The translations under genes and the position numbers were made by a program. A DNA stretch of 64,000 bases from Bacteroidota bacterium (GTDB lineage Bacteria > Bacteroidota > Ignavibacteria > UBA10030 > UBA8401): the NCBI GenBank assembly GCA_030679145.1, contig JAUXTU010000015.1, positions 121,190-185,189 on the forward strand, written 5' to 3'. Numbering within the stretch: the first letter of the stretch is position 1; the number at the start of each line of letters is the position of its first letter. Below are positions 7,175-26,764 of the stretch, piece by piece. Under the pieces are notes generated by a model that did no database searches, was not told the origin of the DNA, and worked only from the letters and a program-made list of their open reading frames with translations.

Positions 7175-7242
7175 AAATTGACAAAAAACAAAAATTTTAA
7201 CTAATGTTACTCTCTACGAGTCGTAGACAAAACAAAAAATCG

Positions 7243-7370: not shown

Positions 7371-7431
7371 CCAATTCTGCGCCGCGTCGAACCATTTAAT
7401 AGATTTGTACGTACCGTCAGTTATTAAAGTA

Positions 7432-9327
7432 TTGTCGTTTATCATCACTTTTTTTTTCTTGGCATCCGCTCAAACAAATCCGTTCCGTTCAACGTTCGTT
7501 GTGCCTGATTCGAACACCGCCGCAATCCGATTTGAAAGAAATGTGAACACCTATCTCTGGAATGCGAATGCATTGTATAAATATGATGATGACGATCTAT
7601 TCGTGAATTTTGGAAGCAGGCTCACGTCCGTTTTTATCCGGAGCAATTTTCTATCGTTCCGTGATGAACAGAACCATTCGCTCTCCGTTTCAAAAAAAAT
7701 ATCACCGGTTTTTTCCGCTGCCGCAGAGCTACAATCATTCGCAATGTCGGATAGCCAAGCATCGAGCAGCACCGTGGCCGGAATGCACACTGGTGCAGCC
7801 GGTATTTCATATCAGCCATATTCAAATATTTCCGTTACACCGATGCTCGGTGTGCGGTATGATAAACAACAATTTCAGGAAGACGACGGATTGAATTACC
7901 GATTGTATGCACAGGGAGATTCTCTTGAGCTAAGCGGATATCGCGGAGCATTTTCCGGACACATCAACCAAAGCGATCTCGGTTCACGAAAATTTAAGAA
8001 CGATGCGGCGGAAATGAACATTGCTGCGGAATTTTCTGAGAGTGCAAGTGACAGCATTCGGGTGCGTTGGTTGTTGAACCGAAATGATTTTTATATTCCG
8101 GCAGACAGCGCCGTGATAAAAGCATTCGGAATGCCGATGAACATTCGTTCGCGTACAGATCAACTATACAGCGTGCAGAACATTATTTCGTACGATATCG
8201 GTGCAGGATTCAGCACAGATATCACCGCGACGGTTGATTCGCGCAATATTGAAAATGATTTCTATTATAAGACGCTGAACATCGGAGCGAACGATGAGAT
8301 TCTCTTCAATACTACTGTCCAAGAATTTCATCTTGAAGGAGCGTTCGATCTGCAGTATCAATCGGAGTCTTCGTTTGCTATCATCGGATTCCAATTATCG
8401 GAACGGGATGAACGTCATCGTATAGAACGGCACAACAGCACTGATCCGTTTGTAGTTGATAAACAGGAAGAACGGATCAAACGTGAACTGCAGTTGGATA
8501 ACACGGCGTTTAACACAGGATTGCGAACAACGATAGAGTCCAAGTTTTCCTCACTAGATAAAATTTCGTTCTCAGCATCGTCAAGCTTGCTGCATTACGA
8601 TACACCCGACACCACTAATACGGATGATCGTGACGAACTGCTGATCAATGCATCATTGAGTGAAACACATCGTTTCAGTACCGTCTTTATTGCGTCCATA
8701 ACACTGGAAGGAACACTTGCGCATCTTGTCTATCTTCATCGTGAAAAAAGTGCGAATAATAATTGGAATCGCATCATTCGATTATCTCCGGAACTACGAT
8801 ATAGTCCGTCGGAACAGTTCAGAATGCTTAATTCATTTGAAGTATCGGCAAATTATACTGTCTTTGATTTTGAACTGCTTGTCCCATCGGTCAAAAGTTA
8901 TTCGTATAGACAGATTGCATTTATGGATTCAACCTCGTATGATATGACAAAGCACGTCGGGATTGACCTGTTTGCTCACATTCGTGTATTCGAGCGGGGA
9001 GAATTTCAGTGGAAGGGTTTTTCCGAGCGTCCACTGCAGCGGATCGAAGAGGTAACATTTTCACCACAGATCCGTTACTCATTCAACAGAGAATGGTATT
9101 TTGCGGTTGGATTCAGATCGTTTGCGCAGAAACGATTCAAATACACGAACAACATACGTCAATTTGAAAGCACGTTCCTCAGTGCCGGTCCGACAACAAG
9201 CATTATGATACGGCTTTCTTCGGAGTCACTTGTTGAAGTGCGGGGATGGAAAGAGTATCAGCACCAAAGCGGCGGAGCGATCCAGGAATTTTCGAACATG
9301 ACAATGAATGTGAGATATTATTTTTAA
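7432..9327 (+). CDS. putative outer-membrane beta-barrel protein. The track ORF starts at 7204, but 7243-7370 is occupied by palindromic repeat elements, so a TTG start at 7432 in front of a signal peptide is preferred.
   Basis: Signal-peptide-like LSFIITFFFLASAQ. Alternating amphipathic strands. C-terminal aromatic residue (NVRYYF). Confidence 0.4.
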   Translation: MSFIITFFFLASAQTNPFRSTFVVPDSNTAAIRFERNVNTYLWNANALYKYDDDDLFVNFGSRLTSVFIRSNFLSFRDEQNHSLSVSKKISPVFSAAAELQSFAMSDSQASSSTVAGMHTGAAGISYQPYSNISVTPMLGVRYDKQQFQEDDGLNYRLYAQGDSLELSGYRGAFSGHINQSDLGSRKFKNDAAEMNIAAEFSESASDSIRVRWLLNRNDFYIPADSAVIKAFGMPMNIRSRTDQLYSVQNIISYDIGAGFSTDITATVDSRNIENDFYYKTLNIGANDEILFNTTVQEFHLEGAFDLQYQSESSFAIIGFQLSERDERHRIERHNSTDPFVVDKQEERIKRELQLDNTAFNTGLRTTIESKFSSLDKISFSASSSLLHYDTPDTTNTDDRDELLINASLSETHRFSTVFIASITLEGTLAHLVYLHREKSANNNWNRIIRLSPELRYSPSEQFRMLNSFEVSANYTVFDFELLVPSVKSYSYRQIAFMDSTSYDMTKHVGIDLFAHIRVFERGEFQWKGFSERPLQRIEEVTFSPQIRYSFNREWYFAVGFRSFAQKRFKYTNNIRQFESTFLSAGPTTSIMIRLSSESLVEVRGWKEYQHQSGGAIQEFSNMTMNVRYYF

Positions 9328-11853: not shown

Positions 11854-12270
11854 ATGAGCGTTCTTTTTAGCCGTCCCTGTGAATATGCGTTACAAGCAGT
11901 GTTATATCTTGCTCAAAAACGAGAAGGAGAAATGACATCTGCCAAGGAATTAACTTCAAAATTAGATATTCCGTATCATTTTATTTCTAAAATTTTACAG
12001 GATCTTACGTATAAAAAACTTTTATATTCGCAAACAGGTCCTACAGGAGGCTTTGCGCTTGCAAAGTCGCCCAAAAAAATTTTATTTCTTGATATTGTTG
12101 AAGCTATTGATGGGAAAGATTATAAAACAAATTGTGTTATGGGATTTTCTGAATGCGGAGGAGAGAAAGTCTGCGCAGTTCATGATAAATGGAAACTTAT
12201 CAAAGAAAATATCCACAACATGTTGGTAAGCAAAAACATATTCGAAATGGCGAAAGAAATGAATCGTTAG
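11854..12270 (+). CDS. Rrf2 family Fe-S transcriptional regulator (NsrR/IscR-like)
   Basis: N-terminal wHTH of the Rrf2 family. C-x6-C-x5-C cluster-ligand motif (CVMGFSECGGEKVC). It lies at the head of the nos locus. Confidence 0.7.
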   Translation: MSVLFSRPCEYALQAVLYLAQKREGEMTSAKELTSKLDIPYHFISKILQDLTYKKLLYSQTGPTGGFALAKSPKKILFLDIVEAIDGKDYKTNCVMGFSECGGEKVCAVHDKWKLIKENIHNMLVSKNIFEMAKEMNR

Positions 12271-12370
12271 TAATAGAAAGGTTATTTGTCAAAAATTTTT
12301 ATTCGACGAACTATTAGTAATACACAATTTTGCATATCATAATTTTGGAGTAAATATTCTGAAATTAAAT

Positions 12371-12384
12371 AGAATTATAATTCT
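12371..12384. promoter_or_regulatory. perfect 14-bp palindrome AGAATTATAATTCT immediately upstream of the DUF2249 start codon
   Basis: Read directly from the sequence. It is self-complementary. Confidence 0.3.
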
Positions 12385-12387
12385 GTA

Positions 12388-12624
12388 ATGAATAATCTCC
12401 AATCAAAAACAATAGATGTCCGAAACATTCATCCTTCTCAAAGACATTCTTTAATATTTGAGATGTTTGATGCACTTGCCGGTGGAGAATCAATTGAACT
12501 TGTGAATGATCACGAGCCACGCCCGCTCTATTATACTTTTTTACATGAGCGAACAGATAAATTTCAATGGGAATATCTGGAATCTGGTCCAACTGTTTGG
12601 AGAGTTCGGATTAGAAAACATTGA
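12388..12624 (+). CDS. DUF2249 domain protein
   Basis: 78 aa. This family is typically associated with denitrification and NO-response loci. Confidence 0.55.
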   Translation: MNNLQSKTIDVRNIHPSQRHSLIFEMFDALAGGESIELVNDHEPRPLYYTFLHERTDKFQWEYLESGPTVWRVRIRKH

Positions 12625-12809
12625 AAACAATAAAATAATTGAATTTTTCAAAATTTAAAAAACCGTAACGAGATGTCACAAGCAATAAAAACCTTTCAAA
12701 AACGCCGCTAAAGGTATGAATAGGTTTATCAAAGCTGAAAAAATATTCTTCAATATTTATTATTGGGAATTAAAACCTACAAACAATGCGGAAATTCTTC
12801 AAAATTAAA

Positions 12810-12827
12810 TCAGATTAGTTAATCTGA
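12810..12827. promoter_or_regulatory. candidate operator: 8-bp perfect inverted repeat TCAGATTA-GT-TAATCTGA ~40 nt upstream of the flavoprotein gene
   Basis: Read directly from the sequence. Confidence 0.35.
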
Positions 12828-12866
12828 AATAGGCATAATTTTTGCAGAGTTTATGGAAAAAACTGT

Positions 12867-14768
12867 ATGACCGACAAATACCCTCTAAAAGTTCCTGATA
12901 TAGAATTTTGGAAGAATCTCGTTCCCTGTCAAATCGGTTGCCCGATTCATACTGATGCCGGACGTTATGTGCAGCAAATTGGCGAAGGGAAGTATAAGGA
13001 AGCATATCTCACCGCGCGGTCTCCAAATCCATTCGCAAGCGTTTGCGGACGCGTCTGTGCGGCTCCGTGTGAAGACTGGTGCCGCCGTGGAAAAATCGAT
13101 GCGCCCGTTTCCATTCGAGCTTTAAAACGTTTTGTAACTGATAAATTTGGAATAGAATCTCTTGAGCCGGATACGGTCAATGCACTATTGAATGGTGAAT
13201 CCGATGCAGGAAATAAATGGCGATGGCATCTTCCGATACAAAATGAAAAAAGAAAAAATATTGTTAAAAACAAGAATGTAGCAGTTATCGGTTCCGGTCC
13301 AACGGGTGTTTCGTGTGCACACGATCTTGCATTAATGGGTTACACCGTAACAATTTTTGAAGCAACCTCGGTTGGCGGAGGAATGCTTCGCCACGGAATT
13401 CCTGAGTATCGTCTTCCCCGCACCTTAATAGATAAAGAAATTGACAAAGTAAAATCCTTAGGCGTTACGATACAATACAACACTCCACTTACTGAAAAAT
13501 TTGGACTGAAAGAATTAAAGAAACAAGGGTACGATTCGGTCTTCATTTCTGTTGGCACACAGAAGGGGCGGGATATTAATATTGAAGGATCAAATCTGGA
13601 TGGTGTTGTAAAAGCGATTGATTATCTACTCAACATCAACAACGGATATCGTGTCAATCTTGGTAAAAAAGTGTTGGTGATTGGAGGCGGTTTTGTGGCA
13701 TTCGATGCAGCACGATCGGCGTTACGTGCAACATCCGAATCTGATACAACTATACACGAAGCGGTTGATGCGGCGCGTGTTGCACGACGATCCGGTGCAG
13801 AAGAAGTACATATTGCAAGTTTAGAATCATTTGCAGAAATGCCCGTACTACGTTCCGTGCAAGGATATGAAGAATTTGAAGAAGCCAAACGTGAGGGTGT
13901 TGTGTTTCATCCTCAGCGCGGTCCCAAAAAATTCATCGGGGAAAATGGAAAATTGAAAAGAGTTGAATTTATCGGTGTGAAAAAAACATATGATGAGAAT
14001 GGAAAATTCAACCCTGTATTTGATGAATCACTGACAGAACGTTTTGATGTCGACACGGTGATCCTTGCAATCGGTCAAAAAACTGATCTTTCGTTCATTG
14101 TCGCTTCCGATAAGGTTGAAATATCTCCAGGCGGATTTCTAAAGATCAATACTGAAACACTTGAAACCACAGCTCCTGGAATTTTTGCAGGGGGAGATGC
14201 AGCGTTCGGTCCCAGAAATATCATTGAATCTGTTGCTAACGGAAAGAAAGCAGCTCTTTCTATCGATGAATTTTTGAGCGGGACAACTGCAACAACGTAT
14301 TTCGATCTCTCTATCGAAAAAATTCCCACCAGCAGATTCACCCGTCCAGAAGATTTTGAACAATACACCCGTGAAGCTCCGCCGACAATAGATTTAAATC
14401 GTCGGACAGGGATATCAGAAGTAGAAATTGGCTACACGGAAGAACAGGCGAAGCGACAGGCTGAACGATGTCTATCATGTCATGTACAAACAATTTATGA
14501 TGCAGATAAATGCGTGATGTGTAACCGTTGCGTGGATGTTTGTCCTGAATACTGTTTGAAGCTTGTTCCGTTGAACGAATTGGAAATTGATACAGCAATT
14601 AAAGCACAATTGGTTGAACACTATAATATCGATCCATATTCACCCGCCAGTGCAATGATCAAAGATGATGAAACATGTATTCGATGCGGATTATGTGCTC
14701 TGCGATGTCCGACCGATGCGATGACAATGGAGGTCTTCTATTATGAAGAACATGAACAATTCAAATAG
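12867..14768 (+). CDS. GltD-like NAD(P)H-dependent Fe-S flavoprotein oxidoreductase with C-terminal 2x[4Fe-4S] ferredoxin domain
   Basis: N-terminal Cys cluster as in glutamate synthase small subunit (CQIGCP, CGRVCAAPCEDWC). Two dinucleotide-binding GxGxxG motifs (VIGSGPTG, VIGGGFVAFDAA). C-terminal CxxCxxCxxxCP x2 (CVMCNRCVDVCP, CIRCGLCALRCP). Confidence 0.7.
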   Translation: MTDKYPLKVPDIEFWKNLVPCQIGCPIHTDAGRYVQQIGEGKYKEAYLTARSPNPFASVCGRVCAAPCEDWCRRGKIDAPVSIRALKRFVTDKFGIESLEPDTVNALLNGESDAGNKWRWHLPIQNEKRKNIVKNKNVAVIGSGPTGVSCAHDLALMGYTVTIFEATSVGGGMLRHGIPEYRLPRTLIDKEIDKVKSLGVTIQYNTPLTEKFGLKELKKQGYDSVFISVGTQKGRDINIEGSNLDGVVKAIDYLLNINNGYRVNLGKKVLVIGGGFVAFDAARSALRATSESDTTIHEAVDAARVARRSGAEEVHIASLESFAEMPVLRSVQGYEEFEEAKREGVVFHPQRGPKKFIGENGKLKRVEFIGVKKTYDENGKFNPVFDESLTERFDVDTVILAIGQKTDLSFIVASDKVEISPGGFLKINTETLETTAPGIFAGGDAAFGPRNIIESVANGKKAALSIDEFLSGTTATTYFDLSIEKIPTSRFTRPEDFEQYTREAPPTIDLNRRTGISEVEIGYTEEQAKRQAERCLSCHVQTIYDADKCVMCNRCVDVCPEYCLKLVPLNELEIDTAIKAQLVEHYNIDPYSPASAMIKDDETCIRCGLCALRCPTDAMTMEVFYYEEHEQFK

Positions 14769-15516
14769 TTTTGCAAGTGGGATAACGAATGCAAAACGAG
14801 TTGTTTTGTTGATCGTATTGGCGTTGCTCGTCCAAACGTCTCAAGCGCATCACGGAAAAGATTTTCTTGTCGCATCATCGTGCACAACGCCGCATGAGGG
14901 GTCGCTGTGCGCACATTTCAATACACAGTATTTTTCTGAAAACCATTCTTCAGAATCATTGATGCTTTTTTCTTCTGGATTGATCTATGGACTTACCGAT
15001 GATATTGGACTTGAGTTCCATTCGCATTTTAACACAATGTCTTCATCTACACATGTTGAAGCGTTAGCACTTGAAGCTCGGTATAATATTCTTTCAGAAG
15101 CAGATGAACATTCCTCTCTTGATGGAACAACAAATCCATTTTCGTTGGCAACATCTCTGGAATTTGAAAAAGGAATAGTGGGACATCCCAGTGTTCTTGA
15201 ATCGCGATTAATTATTGGAAAAGAATTTGGATTTATAATGCTTGTCGGGAACTTGGTTGTGATGCAGGAATTTGAAGAAGGACAACATCCGGAAACGCAA
15301 TTTGTGATTGGGATGAAGACCATGATTACAAATAGTATCGGCATGTTGGTTGAACTCTTGAATAACAATCATCACACGGAAGGGACGCAATTAAGTCTTG
15401 GATGTTCAATTGCCTTGATGAAAAAATTTGATGTTACGATCGGAACCAATTTTATAAATCAGAATCATGGAACAATGATCTCATCGTTCCAAAGCATGAT
15501 GATGTACACATTCTAA
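14743..15516 (+). CDS. His-rich secreted protein, possible small outer-membrane beta-barrel; function unknown
   Basis: Signal peptide (VVLLIVLALLVQTSQA). Multiple His (HHGKDF, HSHF, NNNHH). It ends in the aromatic residue F. The start overlaps the upstream gene. Confidence 0.4.
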   Translation: MKNMNNSNSFASGITNAKRVVLLIVLALLVQTSQAHHGKDFLVASSCTTPHEGSLCAHFNTQYFSENHSSESLMLFSSGLIYGLTDDIGLEFHSHFNTMSSSTHVEALALEARYNILSEADEHSSLDGTTNPFSLATSLEFEKGIVGHPSVLESRLIIGKEFGFIMLVGNLVVMQEFEEGQHPETQFVIGMKTMITNSIGMLVELLNNNHHTEGTQLSLGCSIALMKKFDVTIGTNFINQNHGTMISSFQSMMMYTF

Positions 15517-15547: not shown

Positions 15548-16090
15548 ATGAAAGAAACAGAGTCAACCAACTCGCCCAATAAAACGGAAAAAGAAAAAAA
15601 CTCCCGCCGCGAATTTCTGCAAAAAGTCGGCGTAGGAAGTATTTTGCTTAGTGCAGGCGCAACAGGATTTCAATCGGTAAGAGCACTTATTCCCGATGTT
15701 CTCTACGAAGCATCCGAGCGGTTTAAGGTTGGACATCCCACACAACTTTCTGAAGGAGTAACATTTATAGAAGATCGGCGACTCTATGTGTTCAAAGAAG
15801 GAAGGTCTTATTATGCGATCTCGGGAGCGTGTACACATCTTGGCTGTACTGTTAAATACACAAAATTGAATCAACCAAAAGATATTGAGGTTGACGGATT
15901 AACCAAGAAGATCAATTTCGAATTTCACTGTCCATGCCATGGTTCAAAATTCTATGCAGATGGAACTAACTTTGCTGGTCCTGCTCCCCGTCCGCTGCGA
16001 TGGTATAAACTAGAACAATCTCCTGATGACGGGCAACTGATAGTGGATTTAGGCGAAGAAGTTGAACAAAATTTTCGGTTAACAGTATAA
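15548..16090 (+). CDS. Rieske [2Fe-2S] iron-sulfur protein with Tat signal
   Basis: Twin-arginine motif SRREFLQKVGVG. Rieske boxes CTHLGC and CPCHGS. Confidence 0.8.
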   Translation: MKETESTNSPNKTEKEKNSRREFLQKVGVGSILLSAGATGFQSVRALIPDVLYEASERFKVGHPTQLSEGVTFIEDRRLYVFKEGRSYYAISGACTHLGCTVKYTKLNQPKDIEVDGLTKKINFEFHCPCHGSKFYADGTNFAGPAPRPLRWYKLEQSPDDGQLIVDLGEEVEQNFRLTV

Positions 16091-16114
16091 ACGATCTTTA
16101 ATTCGGAGCGGACA

Positions 16115-17440
16115 ATGCAATTTTTAGAACAAATAAAGAAAATCTATAATAAACTTACATGGACATGGAATCCGGGAAGCGAAAAAGAATCCGGTGATGC
16201 TATTGTAAAAAATATTCTGCTTCATTGGTTTCCGAATAAGATATCGAAGAAAAGTTTATCGTGGAATTATTCATTCTACCTCGGCACAATTTCATTTATC
16301 CTTTTTTTGATCTTAACAATTACCGGAATGATTTTAATGTTCCTCTATGTCCCGTCGGTAGAACGCGCTTATAGTTCTGTAAAGGACATTGAGTTTGTAG
16401 TTGCATTCGGATGGCTCTTACGTTCGGTGCATAGAATATCTGCACATTTGATGGTAGCGATTGTTTTTCTTCATATGGTTCGAGTCTTTTTAACAGGATC
16501 ATATAAAAATGGAAAATCAATCGGTTCCAATCGCCCGACAAACTGGATCGTTGGTATTATTTTATTGCTTTCTACACTGTTGCTCTCATTCACGGGTTAC
16601 TTATTACCGTGGGATCAATTGGCATATTGGGCAATTACCGTTGGAACGAACATTGCAAGTTCTGCGCCAATCGTGGGCGAAAAAATTCGATTCTTTCTTC
16701 TTGGCGGCAATACAATCAATCAGAACGCGCTCATTCGATTTTATGTGTTGCATGTATTTTTCTTACCCGTGCTCGTTCTGTTTTTATTCTTCTACCACAT
16801 GTGGCGCATCCGTAAAGATGGCGGATTAGCGGCTGCCGACAATGAATCACTGAATCAAAAACCAGAAAATATTGCACCGGTAAAATCTAAAACATATTCG
16901 TTGCTTGGTATAACAAAAGGAACAAGCGTTCACGTGCAGACAACAATGGTGAACGAAGAAGAAAATTCAGTCTCATCAGCACCACACTTAATTCGCCGTC
17001 TCTGGTTGGTGACCCTTGCAACGACGGCTGTGACAATTTTATTAGCGATTTTTTTTGCTGCTCCGCTAGAAGAAGCGGCTAATCCATCGGTGACACCGAA
17101 TCCGGCCAAAGCACCGTGGTATTTTCTCTGGTTGCAGGAAATTGTTACCGATACAACCCTTAAACTTGGATTCATCACTATTAACGGTGCATTTATTGGC
17201 GGTATCATTTTGCCAACGTTTCTCATTGGTCTTGCAATCTGGTGGCCGTACCGTGATCGATCCGGATTGAACAGTGTTGGAGTGTGGTTCTCTCCCGAAC
17301 GAAAAAAACAAAATTACACATTCATCGGAATCTGTATAATTATCATCATCTTTACCATCATTGGAACATTTTTGCGGGGACCATATTGGAATTTCTACTG
17401 GCCTTGGGAATCGTGGCCGATGATGCCTGTGAAATTTTAA
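16115..17440 (+). CDS. cytochrome b (b6 + subunit-IV-like fusion) of a Rieske/cyt b complex
   Basis: 441 aa polytopic membrane protein. Conserved His pairs in helices (SVHRISAHLMVAIVFLHMVRVF; YVLHVFFLP). PEW-like segment (LPWDQ). Confidence 0.75.
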   Translation: MQFLEQIKKIYNKLTWTWNPGSEKESGDAIVKNILLHWFPNKISKKSLSWNYSFYLGTISFILFLILTITGMILMFLYVPSVERAYSSVKDIEFVVAFGWLLRSVHRISAHLMVAIVFLHMVRVFLTGSYKNGKSIGSNRPTNWIVGIILLLSTLLLSFTGYLLPWDQLAYWAITVGTNIASSAPIVGEKIRFFLLGGNTINQNALIRFYVLHVFFLPVLVLFLFFYHMWRIRKDGGLAAADNESLNQKPENIAPVKSKTYSLLGITKGTSVHVQTTMVNEEENSVSSAPHLIRRLWLVTLATTAVTILLAIFFAAPLEEAANPSVTPNPAKAPWYFLWLQEIVTDTTLKLGFITINGAFIGGIILPTFLIGLAIWWPYRDRSGLNSVGVWFSPERKKQNYTFIGICIIIIIFTIIGTFLRGPYWNFYWPWESWPMMPVKF

Positions 17441-17480
17441 CTGAATTATTATTTCCACACGATTATAAACGAGATGAGCA

Positions 17481-18698
17481 ATGAACCATAAGAATATGAA
17501 GCAGAAATTAGAGTTTGTTATCAAGGATAAAATCTTTATTAGCATTGCCAGTATTATCTTTTTACTCGTCACAGGGTACATTGTTTTTAATTATCTGACA
17601 CCTGAGTGGAAGATGTACCAACAGGATTTTACATCGGTAGTGGAAGAAAAACTTGGTGTTGATCGAGCAGCAACTGTTCGTGGCGGACTTCAACAAATTT
17701 ATGTAAAAGATCTTGAGGTCACAGATCGTTGTATTACGTGCCATATGGGTATGGAATGGAAGGGAATGGAAAATGTTGAACAGCCGTTTCGTTCTCACCC
17801 CAAAGAGATCTTGGCAAATCATCCAATCGATAAATTTGGCTGTACAACTTGCCATTCGGGGCAAGGCTATGCAACGGATATGAATTCAGCGCACGGATTC
17901 TCAGAACACTGGGAAGACCCGCTGCTTGGCAAAGAATTGTCCGATTTTTACGTCGTGAGCAATAAAAAAGCGATGATGGAAGTGAACTGCAACAAGTGTC
18001 ATCGCTACGAAAAAGAGACAAGGGGAATGGATTTCTTGAACAGGGCAAAACAACTTGTGAACGAAAAAGGCTGCCGTGCGTGTCATGTTATTAACGGACG
18101 CGGAGGAACCGTGGGACCGGATTTAACATACGAAGGTGAAAAATCTCCCGAACAATTCAACTTTGAACGGATAAAAGGTTTTACATCGATGTTTGCGTGG
18201 CACAGCGCTCATTTTAAGAACCCAAAAGAACTTGTTGCAGAAACAGTGATGCCGAATTTTAATTTCACTTCAAACGACGCCCAGGCGTTATCGTTACTGG
18301 TGATGAGTTGGAAAAAAGCAAAGATCCCCGTTGATTATATTCCTTCGAATAATTTTAAAGATGTGCCAACACAGGAAGAATTGGAAAAAGAAGAACGAAT
18401 GAAGAACGGTCCGGGCGCCTTTTTTGTAACAAAGAACTGCTTTGTTTGTCATTCGGTTTCATCGCTTGGTGTGGAAGCAGCAGCACAAATTGGTCCAGAC
18501 CTTGCACTTGCCGTGGAAGATGTTCAATCCCGATTTGGCAGAACGCTCGATGATTTCTTGATGAAACCGACCGGAACAATGGAGGTGGTACTTTCGACAA
18601 TGATTCCGTTGACAAAAGAAGAACGATTAGAAGCGATAGAAAAATTGCGTCAAGCCTATGAAATAAAGAAACGAGAAAAAGCTGTATCGAAAAAATAA
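17481..18698 (+). CDS. membrane-anchored pentaheme c-type cytochrome
   Basis: N-terminal TM helix. Five CxxCH motifs (CITCH, CTTCH, CNKCH, CRACH, CFVCH). Confidence 0.75.
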   Translation: MNHKNMKQKLEFVIKDKIFISIASIIFLLVTGYIVFNYLTPEWKMYQQDFTSVVEEKLGVDRAATVRGGLQQIYVKDLEVTDRCITCHMGMEWKGMENVEQPFRSHPKEILANHPIDKFGCTTCHSGQGYATDMNSAHGFSEHWEDPLLGKELSDFYVVSNKKAMMEVNCNKCHRYEKETRGMDFLNRAKQLVNEKGCRACHVINGRGGTVGPDLTYEGEKSPEQFNFERIKGFTSMFAWHSAHFKNPKELVAETVMPNFNFTSNDAQALSLLVMSWKKAKIPVDYIPSNNFKDVPTQEELEKEERMKNGPGAFFVTKNCFVCHSVSSLGVEAAAQIGPDLALAVEDVQSRFGRTLDDFLMKPTGTMEVVLSTMIPLTKEERLEAIEKLRQAYEIKKREKAVSKK

Positions 18699-18734
18699 GC
18701 GCATTATTTCACAACCAACTAAAGGAGGATTTCT

Positions 18735-20570
18735 ATGAAACAAAAAATGTCTGCATTACTCTTCATCGTTATTGCAATCGCAATGCTGATCGGCTGCGGC
18801 GATGATAAAAAAGGACGTGCCGGTGCCCGATCTGATGTACAAGAAGCGGCACAAAAGACATATGTTGCACCAGGAGATCTGGACGAGTATTACGTTTTCA
18901 AATCCGGCGGACATTCCGGACAAGTGTACGTGTACGGCATTCCATCAATGAGACATATTTCCACAATCCCGGTCTTTACACCATACCCGGCTACTGGATA
19001 CGGGTTTGATAAAGAATCAAAAGAAATGCTCGGAGGATTTACGTGGGGCGATGCGCATCATCCCTCCATCAGTGAAACCGATGGAGATTACGACGGGCGA
19101 TGGTTGTTTATTTCTGACAACGCTAACAATCGAATGGCTCGAATTGATCTGCGTGATTTTAAGACAAAGGAAATTTTTGGACCGATTCCAAACGTATCGG
19201 GAAATCACTGTTCATCGTTTGTAACAGAAAACACCGAGTATGTGCTTGCCGGTTCTCGTTTTTCCATTCCGCTCCCTCGCGGCAGATATGAAAAGATTGA
19301 AGACTATGCCACAAAATTTAATGGAGTGGTTGCAGGAATTAATGTTGACAAAAATTCAGGAAAAATGACTCTCGGATGGCAGGTTTTAATGCCGCCGTTC
19401 AATTACGATCTTGGCGATGCGGGAAAAGGACCGAGCAAAGAGTGGGGTTTCTGGACATGCTATAATTCAGAACGGGCAATCGGAAAATTAGAAGTAACCT
19501 CAACACAAAAAGATCGGGATTATGTTGTTGCTGTCAATTGGAAGAATGCAGAAAAGGCGATCAGCAACGGTAAATTTAAAATGATCGGCGGTGTGAAAGT
19601 GATCGATCCTAAGGATGTTAACGATGTTGTGTTTTTACTCCCCGCAGCAAAATCTCCGCATGGCGTCGATATCAGTCCCGATGGAAAGTACATCATTGCC
19701 AGCGGAAAATTGCAGAGTATCACTACCGTTTTTAGTTTTGAAAAAATGTTGACCGCCATTGCGCAGAAGAATTTCTCCGGAAACGAAGATGGAATAAATG
19801 TTCTAAATTATGATGCCGTTAAAGATGCGGAAGTGAATGTTGGATTGGGACCGCTTCACACGCAATTTGACGATCAGGGATATGCCTACACATCATTGTT
19901 TGTTGAAAGTGCTGTTGCTAAATGGAAGCTTGGATCGTGGGAGGTTGTTGATAAAATACCGGTTGCATACAACATCGGACATCTTACAGCAGCAGAAGGA
20001 GATACAAAGCATCCTGATGGTAAATATCTTATCGCTCTCAATAAATTATCGCACGGACGGCATTTAAGCGTTGGTCCTTCGCAGCCGGAAGCATCGCAAC
20101 TGATCGATATCAGCGGTGAAAAGATGGGTTTGTTGTACGATGCTTTTACAGAGCCAGAACCGCATTATGCTCAGATCATCAAAGCGGACAAACTTAAACC
20201 AATTGAAGTGTATCCGAAAGAAGAAAATAAACATCCGAAAGCGATCTGGGATTTAAAAGATTCAAAGGTTGTGCGTAACGGAAAGAACGTGGAAATCTAT
20301 GCCATTGCTGTTCGATCCAGTTTTGAACCCACGAAGATTGAAGTGAATAAAGGGGACAAAGTGACGATCTATATGACGAATATCGAACAAACAACCGACG
20401 AACTGCACGGCTTTGGTTTGAATGAATACAATATCAACGTTGTCATCGACCCCGGTGAAACAAAGGTTATTGAATTTATTGCAGACAAAGCGGGCGTGTT
20501 TCCATTCTATTGCACTAACTTCTGTTCTGCACTTCATCAAGAAATGCAAGGTTATATGCTCGTGAAGTAA
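18735..20570 (+). CDS. nosZ: nitrous-oxide reductase, clade II (Sec/lipoprotein type)
   Basis: Lipobox LIGCG signal peptide. Conserved N-terminal YVFKSGGHSGQVYVYGIPSMR motif. C-terminal CuA site CTNFCSALHQEMQGYM. 611 aa. Confidence 0.9.
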   Translation: MKQKMSALLFIVIAIAMLIGCGDDKKGRAGARSDVQEAAQKTYVAPGDLDEYYVFKSGGHSGQVYVYGIPSMRHISTIPVFTPYPATGYGFDKESKEMLGGFTWGDAHHPSISETDGDYDGRWLFISDNANNRMARIDLRDFKTKEIFGPIPNVSGNHCSSFVTENTEYVLAGSRFSIPLPRGRYEKIEDYATKFNGVVAGINVDKNSGKMTLGWQVLMPPFNYDLGDAGKGPSKEWGFWTCYNSERAIGKLEVTSTQKDRDYVVAVNWKNAEKAISNGKFKMIGGVKVIDPKDVNDVVFLLPAAKSPHGVDISPDGKYIIASGKLQSITTVFSFEKMLTAIAQKNFSGNEDGINVLNYDAVKDAEVNVGLGPLHTQFDDQGYAYTSLFVESAVAKWKLGSWEVVDKIPVAYNIGHLTAAEGDTKHPDGKYLIALNKLSHGRHLSVGPSQPEASQLIDISGEKMGLLYDAFTEPEPHYAQIIKADKLKPIEVYPKEENKHPKAIWDLKDSKVVRNGKNVEIYAIAVRSSFEPTKIEVNKGDKVTIYMTNIEQTTDELHGFGLNEYNINVVIDPGETKVIEFIADKAGVFPFYCTNFCSALHQEMQGYMLVK

Positions 20571-20577
20571 TTTTAGA

Positions 20578-20606
20578 TAGCGGGATGAATATGTTTCATC
20601 CCGCTA
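20578..20606 (+). terminator. stem-loop (attenuator/terminator) directly after nosZ
   Basis: TAGCGGGATGAA-TATGT-TTCATCCCGCTA is a 12-bp perfect stem followed by a T-rich tract. The RBS AAGGAG and the ATG of the next gene follow. Confidence 0.55.
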
Positions 20607-20627
20607 TGTTATTCTTAAGGAGTTATT

Positions 20628-21263
20628 ATGCAGCAATATTTAGAAAAAGCAACATCATTTTTTGAAATACCGATTGATATGCGGAGTCGTTTTATCATTA
20701 TCCTTGCCGCCGCTATGCTTATACCATCATTCTTTACTCCGCTCTGGGTAATGACGATGTATTCCAATCAATTTCCAGACGGGTTGGTTTTGAATATTTT
20801 TTCCTATAAACTTGAAGGCGGGAAAACTCCAAATCAAGATGACTTGAAGGAAATCAATTCGCTAAACCATTATATCGGTATGCGCCCGTTGATCGATGAT
20901 GATTTTACGGAATTTAAATGGATCCCATTCGTCATCGGCGGAACAATCCTTCTTGCGCTGCGTGTTGTTGTTCTGGGAAAAATGTCGAAGCTGGTAGATC
21001 TGTTTGTGATGTTCTCATACTTTGGTCTGTTTTCGTTATGGAGTTTTTATTATAAGATGTACATTTACGGTCACGAACTTGATCCTACTGCGGCAATAAA
21101 AGTTCCGCCATTTACACCGCCAATGTTCGGGCATCAAACAATGGCAAATTTTGAAGTATATAATTACCCTTCAACAGGTTCATTTTTTATTTCCGTGATG
21201 CCTCTGTTGTTATTGGTAGCTATGTGGCTATCGCGAAAAGCGTGGTTGGCAAAGCAGAAGTAG
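20628..21263 (+). CDS. nos-associated integral membrane protein (NosB-like position)
   Basis: 211 aa with about 4 TM helices. It is located between nosZ and nosD. Confidence 0.4.
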   Translation: MQQYLEKATSFFEIPIDMRSRFIIILAAAMLIPSFFTPLWVMTMYSNQFPDGLVLNIFSYKLEGGKTPNQDDLKEINSLNHYIGMRPLIDDDFTEFKWIPFVIGGTILLALRVVVLGKMSKLVDLFVMFSYFGLFSLWSFYYKMYIYGHELDPTAAIKVPPFTPPMFGHQTMANFEVYNYPSTGSFFISVMPLLLLVAMWLSRKAWLAKQK

Positions 21264-21266
21264 CAT

Positions 21267-22073
21267 ATGAATTTTCCAAAACCAATTATTACTCGTGAAC
21301 ACGGATCGTGGGCAGTGCTTTTTGTACCGATGCTCATTGGTGTGGTATATGCCGGAAGTTTTTCAATAAATATTCTTTTACTCGCATGTTCTGCATTGGG
21401 AATTTTTTTAAGTTATGCCCCAATCCATTCAGTTCTTCGCGAATTCAGCGGAATTTCTCAAGGAAACGAAAAAGTCCGCGCTTCCATTATTTGGGCAATT
21501 ATTTATGTGTTCGCAGGGATCTTATTCATTATTCCTCTTTTTCTTCAAGGATATTATCATCTTATAGCATTTGCGGTGTTGGGTGCTACATCATTCTTCG
21601 GGAATTATTTTTTAACAATTAAAATTCAAAAATCAATTGTCAGCGACTTAATTGCGATTGCGGGATTGACGTTGAGCGCACCAAGCGCATATTATATCGC
21701 CACCGGATTGTTCGATGTTAATGGAGCAGTATTATGGATATTGAATTTTCTTTTTTTTGGATGCAGCGTCTTTTATGTTCACATGAAGATCAAGGTCAGC
21801 GCACTTAAAAAAGATCGTTTACCGTTACGTGAAAAACTGACATTGGGAAAATTGAATATTCTTTATCATCTCTTTGTCGTTTCTGTCGTGATCATTCTTT
21901 CGCTGTATCATTATACACCACTAACCGCAACGCTGGCATTTGTTCCAATGTTCGTTCATGCGATATATGGCACAATGAACTTGAGTGGTTCAATCAAATT
22001 CAAAAAACTGGGAATTCTTCTCTTAGCACAATCAATTCTATTTGGAGTGGTGTTGGTGTTTGTATGGTCGTGA
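21267..22073 (+). CDS. nos-associated polytopic membrane protein
   Basis: 268 aa with 7-8 TM helices. Its stop overlaps the nosD start. Confidence 0.4.
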   Translation: MNFPKPIITREHGSWAVLFVPMLIGVVYAGSFSINILLLACSALGIFLSYAPIHSVLREFSGISQGNEKVRASIIWAIIYVFAGILFIIPLFLQGYYHLIAFAVLGATSFFGNYFLTIKIQKSIVSDLIAIAGLTLSAPSAYYIATGLFDVNGAVLWILNFLFFGCSVFYVHMKIKVSALKKDRLPLREKLTLGKLNILYHLFVVSVVIILSLYHYTPLTATLAFVPMFVHAIYGTMNLSGSIKFKKLGILLLAQSILFGVVLVFVWS

Positions 22074-23422
22074 AGAAATCAACATATGTTCTTTTTGCAG
22101 TAATATTCGTCCAATCATTGATTGCCCAGCAAACAATTCAAACATTAATTGAACAGGCACAACCCGGCGACACTGTTATTGTTGATGGAGGAAGATATTG
22201 TGAAGATATAGTAATCGCAAAATCCATACATCTTATTGGAAAACAATCTCCTGTTATTTATGGAACCGGAAAGGGAAGTATTGTTACGATTCTTGCTCCT
22301 TGGTGTACAGTATCGGGATTTGTAATAGAACATAGCGGTAATATGCTTGTCAATGAAGACGCAGGAATTCTCTTGAAGTCGGACCATAACACTATTCGCG
22401 ACAACAGACTCAGCGATATTCTTTTTGGGATATATCTGATGCAATCAGATTCGAATATTATCGCATTCAACAAAGTGACCGGTCGATCGACTCTTGACCA
22501 AGGCGAACGTGGGAGCGGGATTCATCTCTGGAATTCCAATTATAATATGTTGGAGCACAATACAATTTCCGAAACACGCGATGGCTTTTATATCCAAAAC
22601 GCCAATCATACGCTCATTCAGGATAACGAAGTGTATCATTTGCGATATGGACTGCATTATATGTACGCCGATTCAAATACATTTTTGCGAAATACATTTC
22701 GGGACAATATTGCCGGTGCGGCGATTATGTTTACGCGAGGCATCGTGATGAAACATAATGTGTTTTTACGGAATCGTGGATTTTCTTCCTATGGAATGCT
22801 TTTACAAGACTGTCATTATTCCATCGCCGATTCGAACATTTTCTCCGATAACGTAACCGGAATCTTTTTTGAATCATCCACGAATAATCTTTTCCGCAAT
22901 AATATTGTTGCTCGAAACGATTTGGCCCTGATGATGTTCCAAAACGCCATTCATAATACCTTTACGGAAAACAACTTTATCGATAATTTGAATCCATTGA
23001 CTATTGTTGGAAGGCGAACAGAATCGTTGTGGAGTTTGAACGGCAGAGGCAATTACTGGAGTTCGTACGACGGGTACGACATTGATAATAATGGAATCGG
23101 CGATGTGCCGATGAAGGTTGAGAATGTCTTCTCGTATCTTGAAGGAAAGAATGCCAATGTACGGCTTTACTTATACAGCCCTGCGTCACAAGCATTGGCA
23201 GTTTCGGCGAAAGCTTTTCCGATATTGGATATTTCAGGTGAGCGTGACGAATATCCGTTAATGGAGCCAGTTCCATTAAAATGGTTTACTACAATAATGA
23301 GTGATGATGGTAAGAGAGCAACTAAACCAACAACGGCTTCATTTATTCCATGGCTGATGCCTATTGTGATTTCAATTGTGATCGTATTTGTGCTTCGTAT
23401 TCGAAAGAAAAAATTATTATGA
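22064..23422 (+). CDS. nosD: NosD, periplasmic parallel beta-helix copper-processing protein
   Basis: Signal peptide. Repeated right-handed beta-helix motifs (NxxxxN/D repeats: DNRLSDILFGIYL, HNTISETRDGFYI, DNEVYHLRYGLHY...). C-terminal TM helix. Confidence 0.75.
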   Translation: MVVKKSTYVLFAVIFVQSLIAQQTIQTLIEQAQPGDTVIVDGGRYCEDIVIAKSIHLIGKQSPVIYGTGKGSIVTILAPWCTVSGFVIEHSGNMLVNEDAGILLKSDHNTIRDNRLSDILFGIYLMQSDSNIIAFNKVTGRSTLDQGERGSGIHLWNSNYNMLEHNTISETRDGFYIQNANHTLIQDNEVYHLRYGLHYMYADSNTFLRNTFRDNIAGAAIMFTRGIVMKHNVFLRNRGFSSYGMLLQDCHYSIADSNIFSDNVTGIFFESSTNNLFRNNIVARNDLALMMFQNAIHNTFTENNFIDNLNPLTIVGRRTESLWSLNGRGNYWSSYDGYDIDNNGIGDVPMKVENVFSYLEGKNANVRLYLYSPASQALAVSAKAFPILDISGERDEYPLMEPVPLKWFTTIMSDDGKRATKPTTASFIPWLMPIVISIVIVFVLRIRKKKLL

Positions 23423-24135
23423 TCGTTGTCGAACATCTAACGAAGCAATATGGCAAGTTTACTGCAGTAAACGATGTATCGTTTACTGTAAAACAAGGAG
23501 AAGTCTTTGCATTTCTCGGTCCCAACGGAAGCGGTAAAACTACAACGTTAAAATCCATTGTTGGTCTTAATATTCCAACGTCCGGTTCAATACATGTTCA
23601 TGGAATTAATGTTCGTACACATTCAAAAGCTGCGAAACAGTTTATGAGTTATCTGCCTCAGCGGGTGATCTTTCCTGAAACGCTTACTGCACGCGAAGTT
23701 GTTCGTTTCTACAGCTCGCTTCGGAATATCTCTAAATCTGTTGCGGATGAAGCTTTATCGAATGCAGGCTTCAATGGATTCTCCGATAAACCGGTTCACG
23801 AATTTTCAGGCGGAATGATCCAGCGACTGGGTATGACAGTTATTGCAATTCCGGATTCGCCGATCTTGTTATTGGATGAACCGACGGCAAATCTTGATCC
23901 TCAAGGGGTGAAACAATTTCGTGATTTTATTACGGAACAAAAGGCAAAAGGGAAGACTATTATTTTCTCCACCCATTTACTTGCGGAAGCCGAACAGCTT
24001 GCGGATCGTGTCGCAATTTTTGTTTCGGGTAAACTTGCAGCACTCGAATCAATTGATAATCTCCGAACGACCTTTCTCAAAGAAGGAACGATCGAAGATC
24101 TTTATTTACACTATGTAGGGAATTCACAAAAATGA
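23419..24135 (+). CDS. nosF: NosF, ABC transporter ATP-binding protein
   Basis: Walker A GPNGSGKTT. ABC signature SGGMIQRL. Walker B LLLDEP. The ATG at 23419 overlaps the nosD stop (ATGA). Confidence 0.75.
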   Translation: MIVVEHLTKQYGKFTAVNDVSFTVKQGEVFAFLGPNGSGKTTTLKSIVGLNIPTSGSIHVHGINVRTHSKAAKQFMSYLPQRVIFPETLTAREVVRFYSSLRNISKSVADEALSNAGFNGFSDKPVHEFSGGMIQRLGMTVIAIPDSPILLLDEPTANLDPQGVKQFRDFITEQKAKGKTIIFSTHLLAEAEQLADRVAIFVSGKLAALESIDNLRTTFLKEGTIEDLYLHYVGNSQK

Positions 24136-24158
24136 AAAAAAATGAATTTTTTTTGCCC

Positions 24159-24264
24159 ATTGTCATTTCGAGCGAAGCCCCGAAGGTGCAAGCGAGAAAT
24201 CTCATATTTATATTTGAATCAAAAAACGAGATTCCTCGTCGCTCCGCTTCTCGGAATGACATTG
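24159..24264. repeat. ~105-bp imperfect palindromic element between nosF and nosL. Its arms, CATTGTCATTTCGAGCGAAGC and GCTTCTCGGAATGACATTG, belong to the GTCATYC repeat family.
   Basis: Inverted arms read directly from the sequence. An internal second dyad GAGAAATCTC / GAGATTCCTC is present. Confidence 0.55.
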
Positions 24265-24293
24265 AATATGGATTTTTAAGAAGTCTCATTCCG

Positions 24294-24710
24294 ATGACTC
24301 TAATGTTTCTTTTCATTTCCTGTGGACCGAAAGAGATACAACCGATAGAACTTTTCCCGGAAGATGAATGTGCAAGCTGCCGAATGACTGTCTCTGATCC
24401 TGCGTTTGCATCAGAGATCATCAATAAGGATGGTTCGGTGGTAAAGTTCGACGATCTGCGGTGTTTTGAAAATTATCGCAAAGATCATAACATTGATGAT
24501 GTTGAAAAAATATTTGTCAAAGATTATGAAACAAAAGCATGGATACCGTTTGGAAAAAGTATTGTCATTCAAACAGGGATTGAAACGCCGATGGGTTCAG
24601 GACAAATTGCCGTTGCAGATCAACAGCGTGCAAAACAATTGAAAGAACGATATCCTCCAACACTTGCAGCAATGGAAGGCGATGCATGCTGCGCGCCTAA
24701 GAAAAATTAG
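24294..24710 (+). CDS. nosL: NosL copper chaperone lipoprotein. The start is taken at MTLMFLFISCG; the track ORF starts at 24132 and runs through the repeat element.
   Basis: Lipobox FISCG. NosL signature CASCRMTVSDPAFASEI...KFDDLRCF. Confidence 0.7.
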   Translation: MTLMFLFISCGPKEIQPIELFPEDECASCRMTVSDPAFASEIINKDGSVVKFDDLRCFENYRKDHNIDDVEKIFVKDYETKAWIPFGKSIVIQTGIETPMGSGQIAVADQQRAKQLKERYPPTLAAMEGDACCAPKKN

Positions 24711-24718
24711 GGATCCCT

Positions 24719-25549
24719 GTGAACCATTTACTCATTACTCGCATTGCGCGCCAAGAATTATTAGTGAACATCCGCAACAAATGGACAATTATTTTTGCAG
24801 TTGTCTTTGGTGTTCTTGTCATTGGCATTTCATATATCGGAATTATGGCCGAAGGTTATTCCGGTATGCAGAATTTTACACGCACATCAGCCAGTATGCT
24901 TAATTTAGTGTTGTATATCGTTCCGCTTGTTTCGCTGATCATGGGAACACTCAGCTTTACCAGTGATCGCGGAACAACTGAACTGCTTTTTTCTCAACCG
25001 GTATTTCGAGGTGAAGTTCTTCTTGGAAAGATACTCGGTTTATTTTTGTCTCTTTTACTTTCTATGATCGTTGGTTTTATCGTTGCCGGAGGAATAATTG
25101 TTACTGTTACGGGATCCGAAGGTTTGCTGCAATATTTACTGTTTGTGCTGTTGTCATTATTGCTTGCATTGGTATTCCTTGTTGTGGCCGTGATGATCGC
25201 AACGTCAAATAAACGGAAATCAAGATCGTTCGGTATAGCTCTCTTTGCATGGTTCTTTTTTGTATTGTTTTATGATTTGATCATTCTCGGAGTTTCACTG
25301 TTATTCAAAGGTCAAACTGCGAATACTATTCTTTTCCTTTCACTCTTCGGTAATCCGGTCGATATGGTGCGTATTGCAGCGTTGATCATTCTTGATAATG
25401 TTTCGATCTTCGGCGCCGCTGGTGCCGCATTGCTTCGATTTCTTGGCGGAAGCGGAACGAGTGTTGCATTGTTGATTGGATCGTTGTTGGTGTGGATCGG
25501 TATTCCTATCGTTGTCTCTCATCGTTTGTTGAATAAACAAGATATCTAA
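24719..25549 (+). CDS. nosY: NosY, ABC-2 type permease
   Basis: 276 aa with 6 TM helices. It sits immediately after nosF/nosL. Confidence 0.7.
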   Translation: MNHLLITRIARQELLVNIRNKWTIIFAVVFGVLVIGISYIGIMAEGYSGMQNFTRTSASMLNLVLYIVPLVSLIMGTLSFTSDRGTTELLFSQPVFRGEVLLGKILGLFLSLLLSMIVGFIVAGGIIVTVTGSEGLLQYLLFVLLSLLLALVFLVVAVMIATSNKRKSRSFGIALFAWFFFVLFYDLIILGVSLLFKGQTANTILFLSLFGNPVDMVRIAALIILDNVSIFGAAGAALLRFLGGSGTSVALLIGSLLVWIGIPIVVSHRLLNKQDI

Positions 25550-26749: not shown

Positions 26750-26764
26750 GAAAGAAATCACATT

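Follow-up and report, generated by a model that had tools for sequence, protein, structure and literature searches.

Why does a gene cluster for the respiration of nitrous oxide contain, between a flavoprotein gene and a Rieske gene, the gene of a small exported protein rich in histidine? This question is raised by a nos locus of the Bacteroidota bacterium assembly GCA_030679145.1 (Ignavibacteria; UBA10030; UBA8401), which we analysed within a stretch of 64,000 nucleotides of contig JAUXTU010000015.1 (positions 121,190 to 185,189 of the forward strand; hereafter the window, to whose numbering coordinates given without a contig label refer). The gene in question, located at 14743..15516 (+), starts with ATG and comprises 257 codons and a stop; its product is predicted to be a small outer-membrane β-barrel of an undescribed family. 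We propose, with a probability of about 0.5, that it constitutes an accessory, passive outer-membrane channel for a metal, probably copper, which helps to supply the nitrous oxide reductase NosZ. To our knowledge, NosZ is the only biological sink of N2O, and large amounts of copper are required for its maturation. How ionic copper crosses the Gram-negative outer membrane is poorly understood (PMC8610252); the known routes are TonB-dependent transporters of the OprC/NosA type and, debatably, PcoB.

The open reading frame (ORF) overlaps with its first 26 nt the 3′ end of the GltD-like flavoprotein gene (12867-14768), is preceded by the sequence GGAGG 10-14 nt 5′ of its ATG, and its stop is separated by 31 nt from the Rieske gene with a twin-arginine translocation signal (15548-16090). 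The GC content of 0.385 and that of third codon positions of 0.364 lie inside the range of the neighbouring genes. A recent horizontal insertion is thus unsupported, a result which does not speak against a foreign origin as such. A scan for promoters and terminators gave no signal flanking or inside the gene and fewer sites than in shuffled sequence. The identical NCBI entry, MDP1675616.1 from a Bacteroidota metagenome-assembled genome (MAG), is named 'hypothetical protein'. Residues 1-35 (14743..14847, +) are predicted from the hydropathy profile to form a Sec signal peptide with K17/R18 in the n-region, the hydrophobic stretch VVLLIVLALLV and a signal peptidase I site TSQA↓HH (the arrow marking cleavage) in front of His36; residues 13-34 are helical in the AlphaFold2 model of the full-length protein. 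The mature form of 222 residues would thus begin with the first two of 14 histidines (positions 36, 37, 51, 58, 68, 93, 95, 104, 123, 148, 182, 210, 211 and 242). The protein contains 14 Met and no Trp, and it terminates with MMMYTF. The original prediction, made from the DNA letters, had described precisely this ORF with its signal peptide between the flavoprotein and Rieske genes of a nos locus, a C-terminal aromatic residue and membership in no recognised family, and all three statements are confirmed.

Indeed, the window protein matches no entry of Pfam, NCBIfam or the PDB sequences (E≤1 to 10), and a profile search against the PDB sequences yielded nothing at E≤10. A word-indexed search retrieved only two relatives with 55% and 44% identity; an exhaustive HMMER search with a profile built from these three sequences recovered 99 cluster representatives at E≤1e-3, 35 of them at E≤1e-10. 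Nearly all members have 225-260 residues, and all recorded source names read 'hypothetical protein'. A Pfam scan of 53 members (43 plus 10 distant ones) gave only sub-threshold matches to generic outer-membrane families (OMP_b-brl, Porin_4, MipA and KdgM), and a literature search for this gene or family in nos clusters of Ignavibacteria returned nothing relevant. The family is rare, with roughly 100 clusters among 1.8 billion representatives. This number of homologous clusters, together with a confidently predicted fold (predicted local distance difference test, pLDDT, 89-93), confirms that the gene is real and beyond chance. For the comparisons below, the cleavage site was evaluated in a census of 113 motif-bearing sequences and residue conservation in 109 full-length sequences.

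AlphaFold2 calculations with the family alignment gave 12 antiparallel strands for both the full-length protein (pLDDT 89, predicted template modelling score 0.79) and the mature form (pLDDT 93.3, 0.88), and the predicted fold of a 12-stranded outer-membrane β-barrel is well supported by these models. The strands span residues 55-256 (14905..15510, +). The end of the last one, QSMMMYTF (15490..15513, +), carries the terminal Phe of an outer-membrane β-signal (the final residue being Phe in 55/109 and Leu in 41/109 members) as well as the lumen-facing Met252 and Met254. The hydrophobic alternation of the strands places Glu91, His93, His95, Glu140, Glu142, Glu153, Asn170 and Glu204 on the polar side facing the lumen, which according to this assignment harbours 10 acidic versus 3 basic residues. 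An excess of negative charge also characterizes the mature protein as a whole (24 Asp and Glu versus 8 Lys and Arg) and the family (median net charge about −15). The connection between strands 4 and 5 (residues 118-133, SEADEHSSLDGTTNPF; 15094..15141, +) is long, acidic and His-containing, was modelled with lower confidence and is enlarged in the nos-linked clade, as in the relatives P0002 (AEHSEHHHADESPNPF) and P0003 (SEHSEGHPHEEKGYPF).

The barrel is preceded by an ordered N-terminal segment of 19 residues (residues 36-54; 14848..14904, +), which lacks regular secondary structure and carries Cys47 and His51. Its high pLDDT (90 for mature residues 1-10 and 96 for residues 11-20) argues that it is packed against the barrel. 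In the crystal structure of the COG4313 channel Pput2725 a stretch of ~14 residues at the N-terminus reaches into the lumen from the periplasm (PMC4493636), and by analogy the segment considered here probably sits in the lumen, which it would enter from the same side. Superposition with Foldseek onto PDB structures indicated FapF (TM score 0.66-0.74) and Pput2725 (4rl8, TM score 0.65) as the nearest folds. The structure prediction, put forward with the original prediction as a way to check it, thus produced a confident 12-stranded outer-membrane barrel.

A putative metal site emerges from the conservation pattern. In the cleavage-site census the position −1 is occupied by Ala in 103 and by Gly in 8 sequences, the position −3 by Ala in 76, Val in 11, Ser in 9 and Leu in 9, and the signal peptide has a median length of 24 residues. 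The −3/−1 rule applied to these positions makes His the first mature residue in 110 of 113 sequences, from which we infer cleavage at Ala35↓His36 and a mature N-terminus that starts with His-His. The sequence His36-His37-Gly-Lys-Asp-Phe (14848..14865, +), the signature motif of the family, would provide the metal ligands of the plug. His36 is found in 100/109 and His37 in 103/109 members; in the few members with Gln or Asp instead of His36, His37 is always retained. The wall half of the proposed site is the motif Glu91-x-His93-x-His95 of strand 3 (15013..15027, +), with an acidic residue at position 91 in 100/109 and His93 and His95 in 103/109 members each, and with side chains on the polar lumen-facing side. 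Further conserved lumen-facing residues are Glu140 (100/109) and Glu142 (96/109) of strand 5 (15160..15168, +), Asn170 (103/109) of strand 7 (15250..15252, +) and Glu204 of strand 9 (15352..15354, +), which with 108/109 is the most conserved residue of the family; Gly190 (101/109) and Gly234 (106/109) are likewise maintained. All five sequences with a His93Tyr exchange also lack an intact N-terminal His pair, while they keep Glu140, Asn170 and Glu204. Such a joint loss of the His pair and of HxH fits one site built from both. In addition, His-rich insertions extend loops of 14/109 members, chiefly those that follow strands 1, 5 and 7 (for example GHHHHQSEEE, SSHHHHDEDAHHDHD... and SSHHHHDEDAHHDHDSEPEADSHHHADSIHNH). 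Taken from the alignment, the conserved histidines look like a real metal site and not like compositional noise, and the His-His/ExHxH arrangement probably binds a metal. Among the His clusters highlighted beforehand, HHGKDF and HSHF proved near-invariant, whereas NNNHH is kept only among the closest relatives. The family signature can be written as A↓HH(G/A)(K/R)(D/E)(F/Y) after the signal peptide, (E/D)xHxH in strand 3, ExE in strand 5, Asn in strand 7 and Glu in strand 9 within a total of 225-260 residues, and every element is present in the window protein. The family is best filed as a new one of His-His-plugged 12-stranded barrels within the known kind of small outer-membrane metal channels.

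A link to N2O respiration is suggested by genomic position. The slot between the flavoprotein and Rieske genes holds the barrel gene in five further contig lineages (L001/L016, L002, L003, L004 and L005) that derive from Ignavibacteria/Ignavibacteriales MAGs and related metagenomes; L004 and L005 are long enough to show the cytochrome c and NosZ genes further 3′, and L004 reaches NosF. In the window and in L001-L005 the gene is intact, constant in position and equipped with all family motifs. Between clusters the barrel proteins share only 37-55% identity, compared to 72-90% for the neighbouring genes, and the barrel therefore evolves much faster than its neighbours. Cys47 and Cys56 are common to the window protein, P0002, P0003 and P0004 and are mostly replaced by Ala or Tyr elsewhere in the family, and His51 and His58 are conserved in the three closest sequences. 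The nos-linked proteins contain 6-12 Met in the mature form compared to a family median of 2, and 4-8 lumen-facing Met, including Met252 and Met254, compared to a median of 1. Cys and Met are typical ligands of Cu(I), and the extra soft ligands of this clade (Cys47, Cys56, His51, His58 and the lumen Met) suggest an adaptation to Cu(I) under anoxia. The nos linkage is limited to one Ignavibacteria-type subclade, while the rest of the family, in the gene contexts covered, is not linked to nos. The co-occurrence with clade II nosZ, suggested in advance as a test, thus applies to this subclade, but the family as a whole is not nos-specific.

Neither does every related nos cluster contain the gene. 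Four nearby clusters, sampled by the identity of their flavoprotein to that of the window (L031/32 94%, L033/34 91%, L035/36 85% and L037 79%), all encode flavoprotein, Rieske protein, cytochrome b, cytochrome c, NosZ, NosB, YwiC, NosD, NosF and NosL in the same order. The barrel gene is absent from all of them, and the gaps between the flavoprotein and Rieske genes measure 46, 61, 15 and 148 nt, respectively. In the closest of these clusters (L031) the flavoprotein is 94% and cytochrome b 95% identical to the window counterparts, and in trees of cytochrome b and of the flavoprotein, clusters with and without the barrel gene are interleaved. Because of this interleaving among close relatives, the gene appears as an accessory element that has been repeatedly gained or lost and not as a core nos component. 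The same comparison (window 15548-20570 versus L031, L035 and L037) revealed a mosaic composition of the nos cluster. Cytochrome b of the window is 95% identical to that of L031 and NosZ only 80%, whereas NosZ is 92% identical to that of L035, whose cytochrome b reaches only 80%; this pattern suggests recombination between the electron-transfer module and nosZ.

Outside the nos clusters, the gene contexts of distant homologues repeatedly involve metal genes. On L012/L013 the homologue closes a run of genes on one strand, which also encode SCO1/SenC, a β-propeller protein with a YtkA-like domain, a fusion of cytochrome c with a periplasmic binding protein and a very large protein that faintly matches multicopper oxidases; a CDF efflux gene is found on the opposite strand. 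On L008 it is found 3′ of a MerR/CadR/ZntR/CueR-type regulator, with a divergently oriented gene for a GDCCVxC protein (NF041374, E 3.5e-30) and a multicopper oxidase at a distance of ~5 kb. On L017 the homologue is preceded by the gene of an extracytoplasmic function sigma factor and followed by those of DsbD_TM, a redoxin and a MerT-HMA fusion. A match on L007 (Neomarinimicrobiota) was disregarded, since it covers only 38 residues at the contig edge. On L008 (7742-9044) a MerR-type helix-turn-helix domain, truncated at approximately residue 108, is in frame with the barrel homologue and gives the 347-residue protein P0113; a second long member, P0129 (345 residues), indicates that the MerR-barrel arrangement may recur. 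The in-frame barrel of P0113 has its own Met and signal peptide, and we consider the arrangement as adjacency or read-through and not as a true fusion.

Small exported ORFs precede several homologues. The one directly 5′ of the homologue on L030 (260-586) shows CVFC, 43 residues and RAPP five residues before the stop, and small exported ORFs also lie directly 5′ of the barrel homologues on L029 (about 7650-7990, +1 frame) and L009 (2189-2560). The features of the L030 ORF resemble the hallmarks of CruR/DUF2946, a copper-responsive leader that heads copper-acquisition operons (PMC9426467). The Pfam DUF2946 model gave no match to the leader ORF of L030 and only E=0.09 for that of L009, which ends with RGPPA, and the link to CruR therefore rests on motifs and not on family membership. 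A second type of leader ORF is located ~35 nt 5′ of homologues from soil metagenomes (L020 100-432, L021 1-312, L025 1317-1769, L026 127-459 and L027 888-1214). This conserved type is exported as well, is rich in Cys and displays the pattern PPCCK.HGC.M..R....CAF..CDQ, with IDHPP(R/Q/P) located three to four residues ahead of the stop codon. An undescribed metal-sensing arrest-peptide leader is a possible interpretation.

Based on these data we propose the following scenario. Signal peptidase I would cut after Ala35 and release a mature protein beginning with His-His. The N-terminal segment of 19 residues would then bend into the barrel at its periplasmic end, in the manner of COG4313 channels, and bring the free His pair beside the lumen-facing Glu91-x-His93-x-His95 within an acidic lumen that is further lined by Glu140, Glu142, Glu153, Glu204 and the polar Asn170. 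The His pair of the plug and ExHxH of the wall might form a metal-binding constriction comparable to the site of OprC/NosA and the electronegative funnel of PcoB, and a TonB-independent, cation-selective passive channel of this kind would let copper cross the outer membrane. In the Ignavibacteria-type lineage the gene would be co-transcribed with the electron-transfer module and nosZ, and the channel would help to supply the many copper atoms of NosZ, ahead of NosL and NosDFY, as an accessory and non-essential component. Copper appears as the most likely metal because a copper enzyme and its copper-maturation proteins are the products of the one enzyme cluster into which the gene has been recruited, because other members adjoin SCO1/SenC and CruR-like leader ORFs, because the nos-linked clade gains soft ligands, and because the precedents for copper passage in PcoB and OprC/NosA use related principles. 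The copper-related outer-membrane channel surmised in the original prediction thus gains support from the barrel and from the copper and soft-metal contexts of distant members, while copper instead of Zn, Ni or Fe, an inward flux and the delivery to NosL/NosZ are features that we infer.

Several known systems share parts of this design. The barrel of PcoB has 12 strands and an electronegative funnel for Cu(II) (PMC9210255). The family described here resembles PcoB/CopB (PDB 7PGE) as a small, TonB-independent outer-membrane barrel of 12 strands with an electronegative lumen of Asp and Glu, and a His-bearing N-terminal segment recalls the N-terminal region of PcoB/CopB, which bears His and Met and is required for function. 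However, neither the window protein nor 43 members nor 10 distant members match Pfam CopB at E≤1; the N-terminal domain of PcoB is disordered and poorly conserved (109 residues in Caulobacter PcoB), whereas here 19 ordered residues start with His-His; and PcoB is paired with the multicopper oxidase PcoA, while the window cluster contains no multicopper oxidase. In OprC/NosA the copper site is split between CxxxM of the plug and HxM of the barrel wall, and a methionine track serves Cu(I) (PMC8610252). An analogous division between the proposed His-His plug and the ExHxH wall, the lumen Met of the nos-linked clade, the outer-membrane location and the link to copper supply are the common features. 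NosA has historically been linked to NosZ and, like the barrel gene, is not universally needed for NosZ. The functional analogy to NosA drawn in the original prediction is thus reasonable; a structural relationship does not exist, since NosA is a 22-stranded TonB-dependent transporter. OprC likewise has 22 strands, is energised by TonB and contains a plug of ~15 kDa, compared to 12 strands without TonB box or plug domain here; the CxxxM-HxM motif is absent and replaced by another ligand set, and there is neither homology nor a TonB-receptor Pfam match.

In fold, the protein comes closest to FapF and the COG4313 channels, again with no match in sequence. The Pfam model Phenol_MetA_deg of COG4313 (Pput2725, PDB 4RL8) does not match any of the 53 members scanned at E≤1, and COG4313 channels have been linked to the uptake of hydrophobic compounds and to a lateral exit site, in contrast to the polar lumen lined by four His and by Glu, the His-rich loops and the metal-gene contexts found here. 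FapF (PDB 5O65) has a similar fold at a sequence identity of 9-12%; it forms trimers with a coiled-coil and a helical plug and serves the export of unfolded protein. The gene of FapF belongs to fap operons, whereas the neighbours of the window gene are respiratory and nos genes without any fap context. A processed N-terminal His serves as metal ligand in the CuB site of PmoB, lytic polysaccharide monooxygenases (LPMO), CopC and YcnI, and for Ni in HupE/UreJ. The N-terminal His of the present family is predicted from the sequence to be exposed by cleavage in a similar way, with an HxH partner as in PmoB. Those proteins are soluble β-sandwiches or reside in the inner membrane, however, whereas the present family consists of predicted outer-membrane barrels, and its invariant residue is the second His.

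Several observations weigh against a copper channel in the service of NosZ. Without Trp and with only 4 Tyr the protein has a weak aromatic girdle for an outer-membrane protein; a position of the His pair close to HxH is deduced from co-conservation and by analogy to COG4313; the five sequences with the joint loss are the most distant members and perhaps reflect one or two evolutionary events only; the homologues of L009, L015 and L029 have no clear metal genes nearby, leader ORFs aside; and four related nos clusters lack the gene, so that any role for NosZ is dispensable. The His/Glu ligand set suits Zn(II), Ni(II) and Fe(II) as well as Cu(II), and MerR-type regulators and MerT-HMA usually mark metal excess, for which efflux or detoxification fits better than acquisition. 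These last points bear on the alternative of a channel or sink that acts in metal tolerance or on a different metal; it would release, buffer or admit Cu, Zn, Ni, Hg or Fe, and its placement in the nos cluster would serve periplasmic metal balance and not the loading of NosZ. We retain this alternative because a role in metal stress would explain the contexts with the MerR-type sensor and MerT-HMA just as well: homologues occur beside a MerR/CadR/ZntR/CueR-type sensor and a GDCCVxC protein and near MerT-HMA, DsbD_TM and redoxin, the strand opposite the SCO1-linked homologue carries a CDF efflux gene, the ligands His and Glu count as hard or borderline, and even for PcoB the direction is disputed between efflux (PMC12509749) and uptake (PMC9210255). 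Nevertheless, the nos-linked clade occurs only in a copper-enzyme cluster and gains Met and Cys typical of Cu(I), SCO1/SenC and the CruR-like leader ORFs point to copper supply (PMC9426467), and efflux against a gradient would need energy that is not available to an outer-membrane barrel, which renders this alternative unlikely, if far from negligible. A channel of the COG4313, FapF or KdgM type for a non-metal solute, hydrophobic or small organic, in which His and Glu just stabilise the inserted N-terminus, would agree with the best structural matches, which are FapF, COG4313 and KdgM, with the homologues that have no metal genes nearby and with the lumenal N-terminus of COG4313 held by a conserved Glu (PMC4493636). 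Yet even at E≤1 no member matches the Pfam models of those families, the lumen with its acidic and polar lining is not hydrophobic, four near-invariant His including the processed N-terminal pair exceed what the stabilisation of a plug needs, and the His-rich loop insertions and recurrent metal-gene contexts favour a metal; we regard this solution as quite improbable.

The predicted mature N-terminus also invites a catalytic interpretation. An outer-membrane metalloenzyme or redox copper centre might coordinate its metal in a brace-like manner by the amino group and imidazole of His36, His93 and His95, comparable to PmoB CuB, LPMO, CopC and YcnI, or the barrel might contain a hydrolytic site like LpxR or OMPLA. 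The ligand set of PmoB CuB, an N-terminal His and HxH, is the same as that of the proposed site; the predicted cleavage exposes an N-terminal His in 110/113 sequences that also offer the HxH motif, and conservation is at the level expected of a catalytic site. No gene context suggests a substrate, however, the fold is unrelated to known histidine-brace proteins, the invariant second His (His37) fits an X-His chelate or a simple His cluster as well, and the acidic lumen and His-rich loops fit ion conduction, so that an enzymatic function is very unlikely. A bolder form of the copper reading, which we likewise hold to be quite improbable, places a defined mononuclear Cu centre in the outer membrane, coordinated by the amino terminus and imidazole of His36/His37 and by His93 and His95; such a histidine-brace-like centre, without known precedent in this fold, might act as a copper valve by plug gating or perform Cu(II)/Cu(I) redox chemistry before the hand-off to NosL/NosZ. 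The gene might finally be a dispensable passenger that contributes nothing to N2O respiration and may be in the process of disappearing, as its interleaved presence and absence among close relatives and its identity of 37-55% beside neighbours with 72-90% could indicate. This is extremely unlikely in view of the intact ORF at constant position with all motifs in the window and in L001-L005, the derived Cys pair and Met enrichment shared by the nos-linked clade, which indicate selection, and a GC and GC3 content matching the neighbours without internal promoter or terminator signal. Two further candidates were rejected. Nothing in the acidic, His-lined lumen suggests gas conduction, and N2O as a small neutral gas should cross membranes without a channel; neither an N2O channel nor a chaperone, both considered in the original prediction, finds any support. 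A subunit of the Rieske/cytochrome b complex was rejected in view of the predicted outer-membrane barrel and of the related clusters without the gene.

If the proposed copper channel is correct, the family would represent a third design for copper entry through the outer membrane, very small, energy-independent and with a testable signature of a His-His plug and a wall HxH. One of its branches is wired into clade II nos clusters of Ignavibacteria-type bacteria, which are common in wastewater and sediments, and close relatives with and without the gene constitute a natural experiment that may tell if the reduction of N2O is limited by the entry of copper. The ecological weight of a rare and accessory family is probably modest.

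The surroundings of the barrel gene in the window provided additional observations. Upstream (11854..14768, +) lie the genes of an Rrf2 regulator (11854-12270), a DUF2249 protein (12388-12624) and the flavoprotein (12867-14768), which combines a GltD-like FAD/NAD(P) module with Fer4_20 and two [4Fe-4S] domains. Downstream (15548..25549, +) follow the genes for the Rieske protein, cytochrome b, a multihaem cytochrome c, a Sec-type clade II NosZ (TIGR04246, 909 bits), NosB-like and YwiC-like proteins, NosD, NosF, NosL and NosY. The cluster ends 3′ of nosY with a protein of the FGE-sulfatase family and a bacterial globin (25565-27145); the FGE-type protein presumably resembles the NirV proteins that adjoin copper nitrite reductase genes. 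The upstream regulators vary, with Rrf2/DUF2249 in the window and L031 and a Crp/Fnr-type regulator plus a ScdA/hemerythrin protein in L033-L036 (7397-8989). Cytochrome b of the window (16115-17440) matches in its N-terminal half NCBIfam ExtP, a cytochrome b of a selenite/tellurite operon, and in its C-terminal half ExtQ, and from these matches it looks like a fusion of the two. The GltD-like flavoprotein is the first gene of the module of Rieske protein, cytochrome b, cytochrome c and nosZ in 9/9 cluster lineages, five with and four without the barrel; it has 7975 homologues at E≤1e-50, with at least 74% identity in all 120 clusters listed, and its constant position suggests a pyridine-nucleotide- or ferredoxin-linked electron input to clade II N2O respiration.

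Two further observations concern single regions. The near-identical contigs L033 (15914-17383) and L034 (16067-17512) differ in the nosB/ywiC region, where the YwiC-like gene of L033 is truncated and a 219-residue ORF was called in the reverse orientation; this may reflect either a rearrangement or the assembly. Four large ORFs of the window have no Pfam match, those at 1275-3425 (716 residues), 50141-52555 (804 residues) and 52552-54909 (785 residues) at E≤1e-5 and that at 7204-9327 (707 residues) at E≤0.01; the latter terminates with VRYYF and looks like a large outer-membrane barrel.

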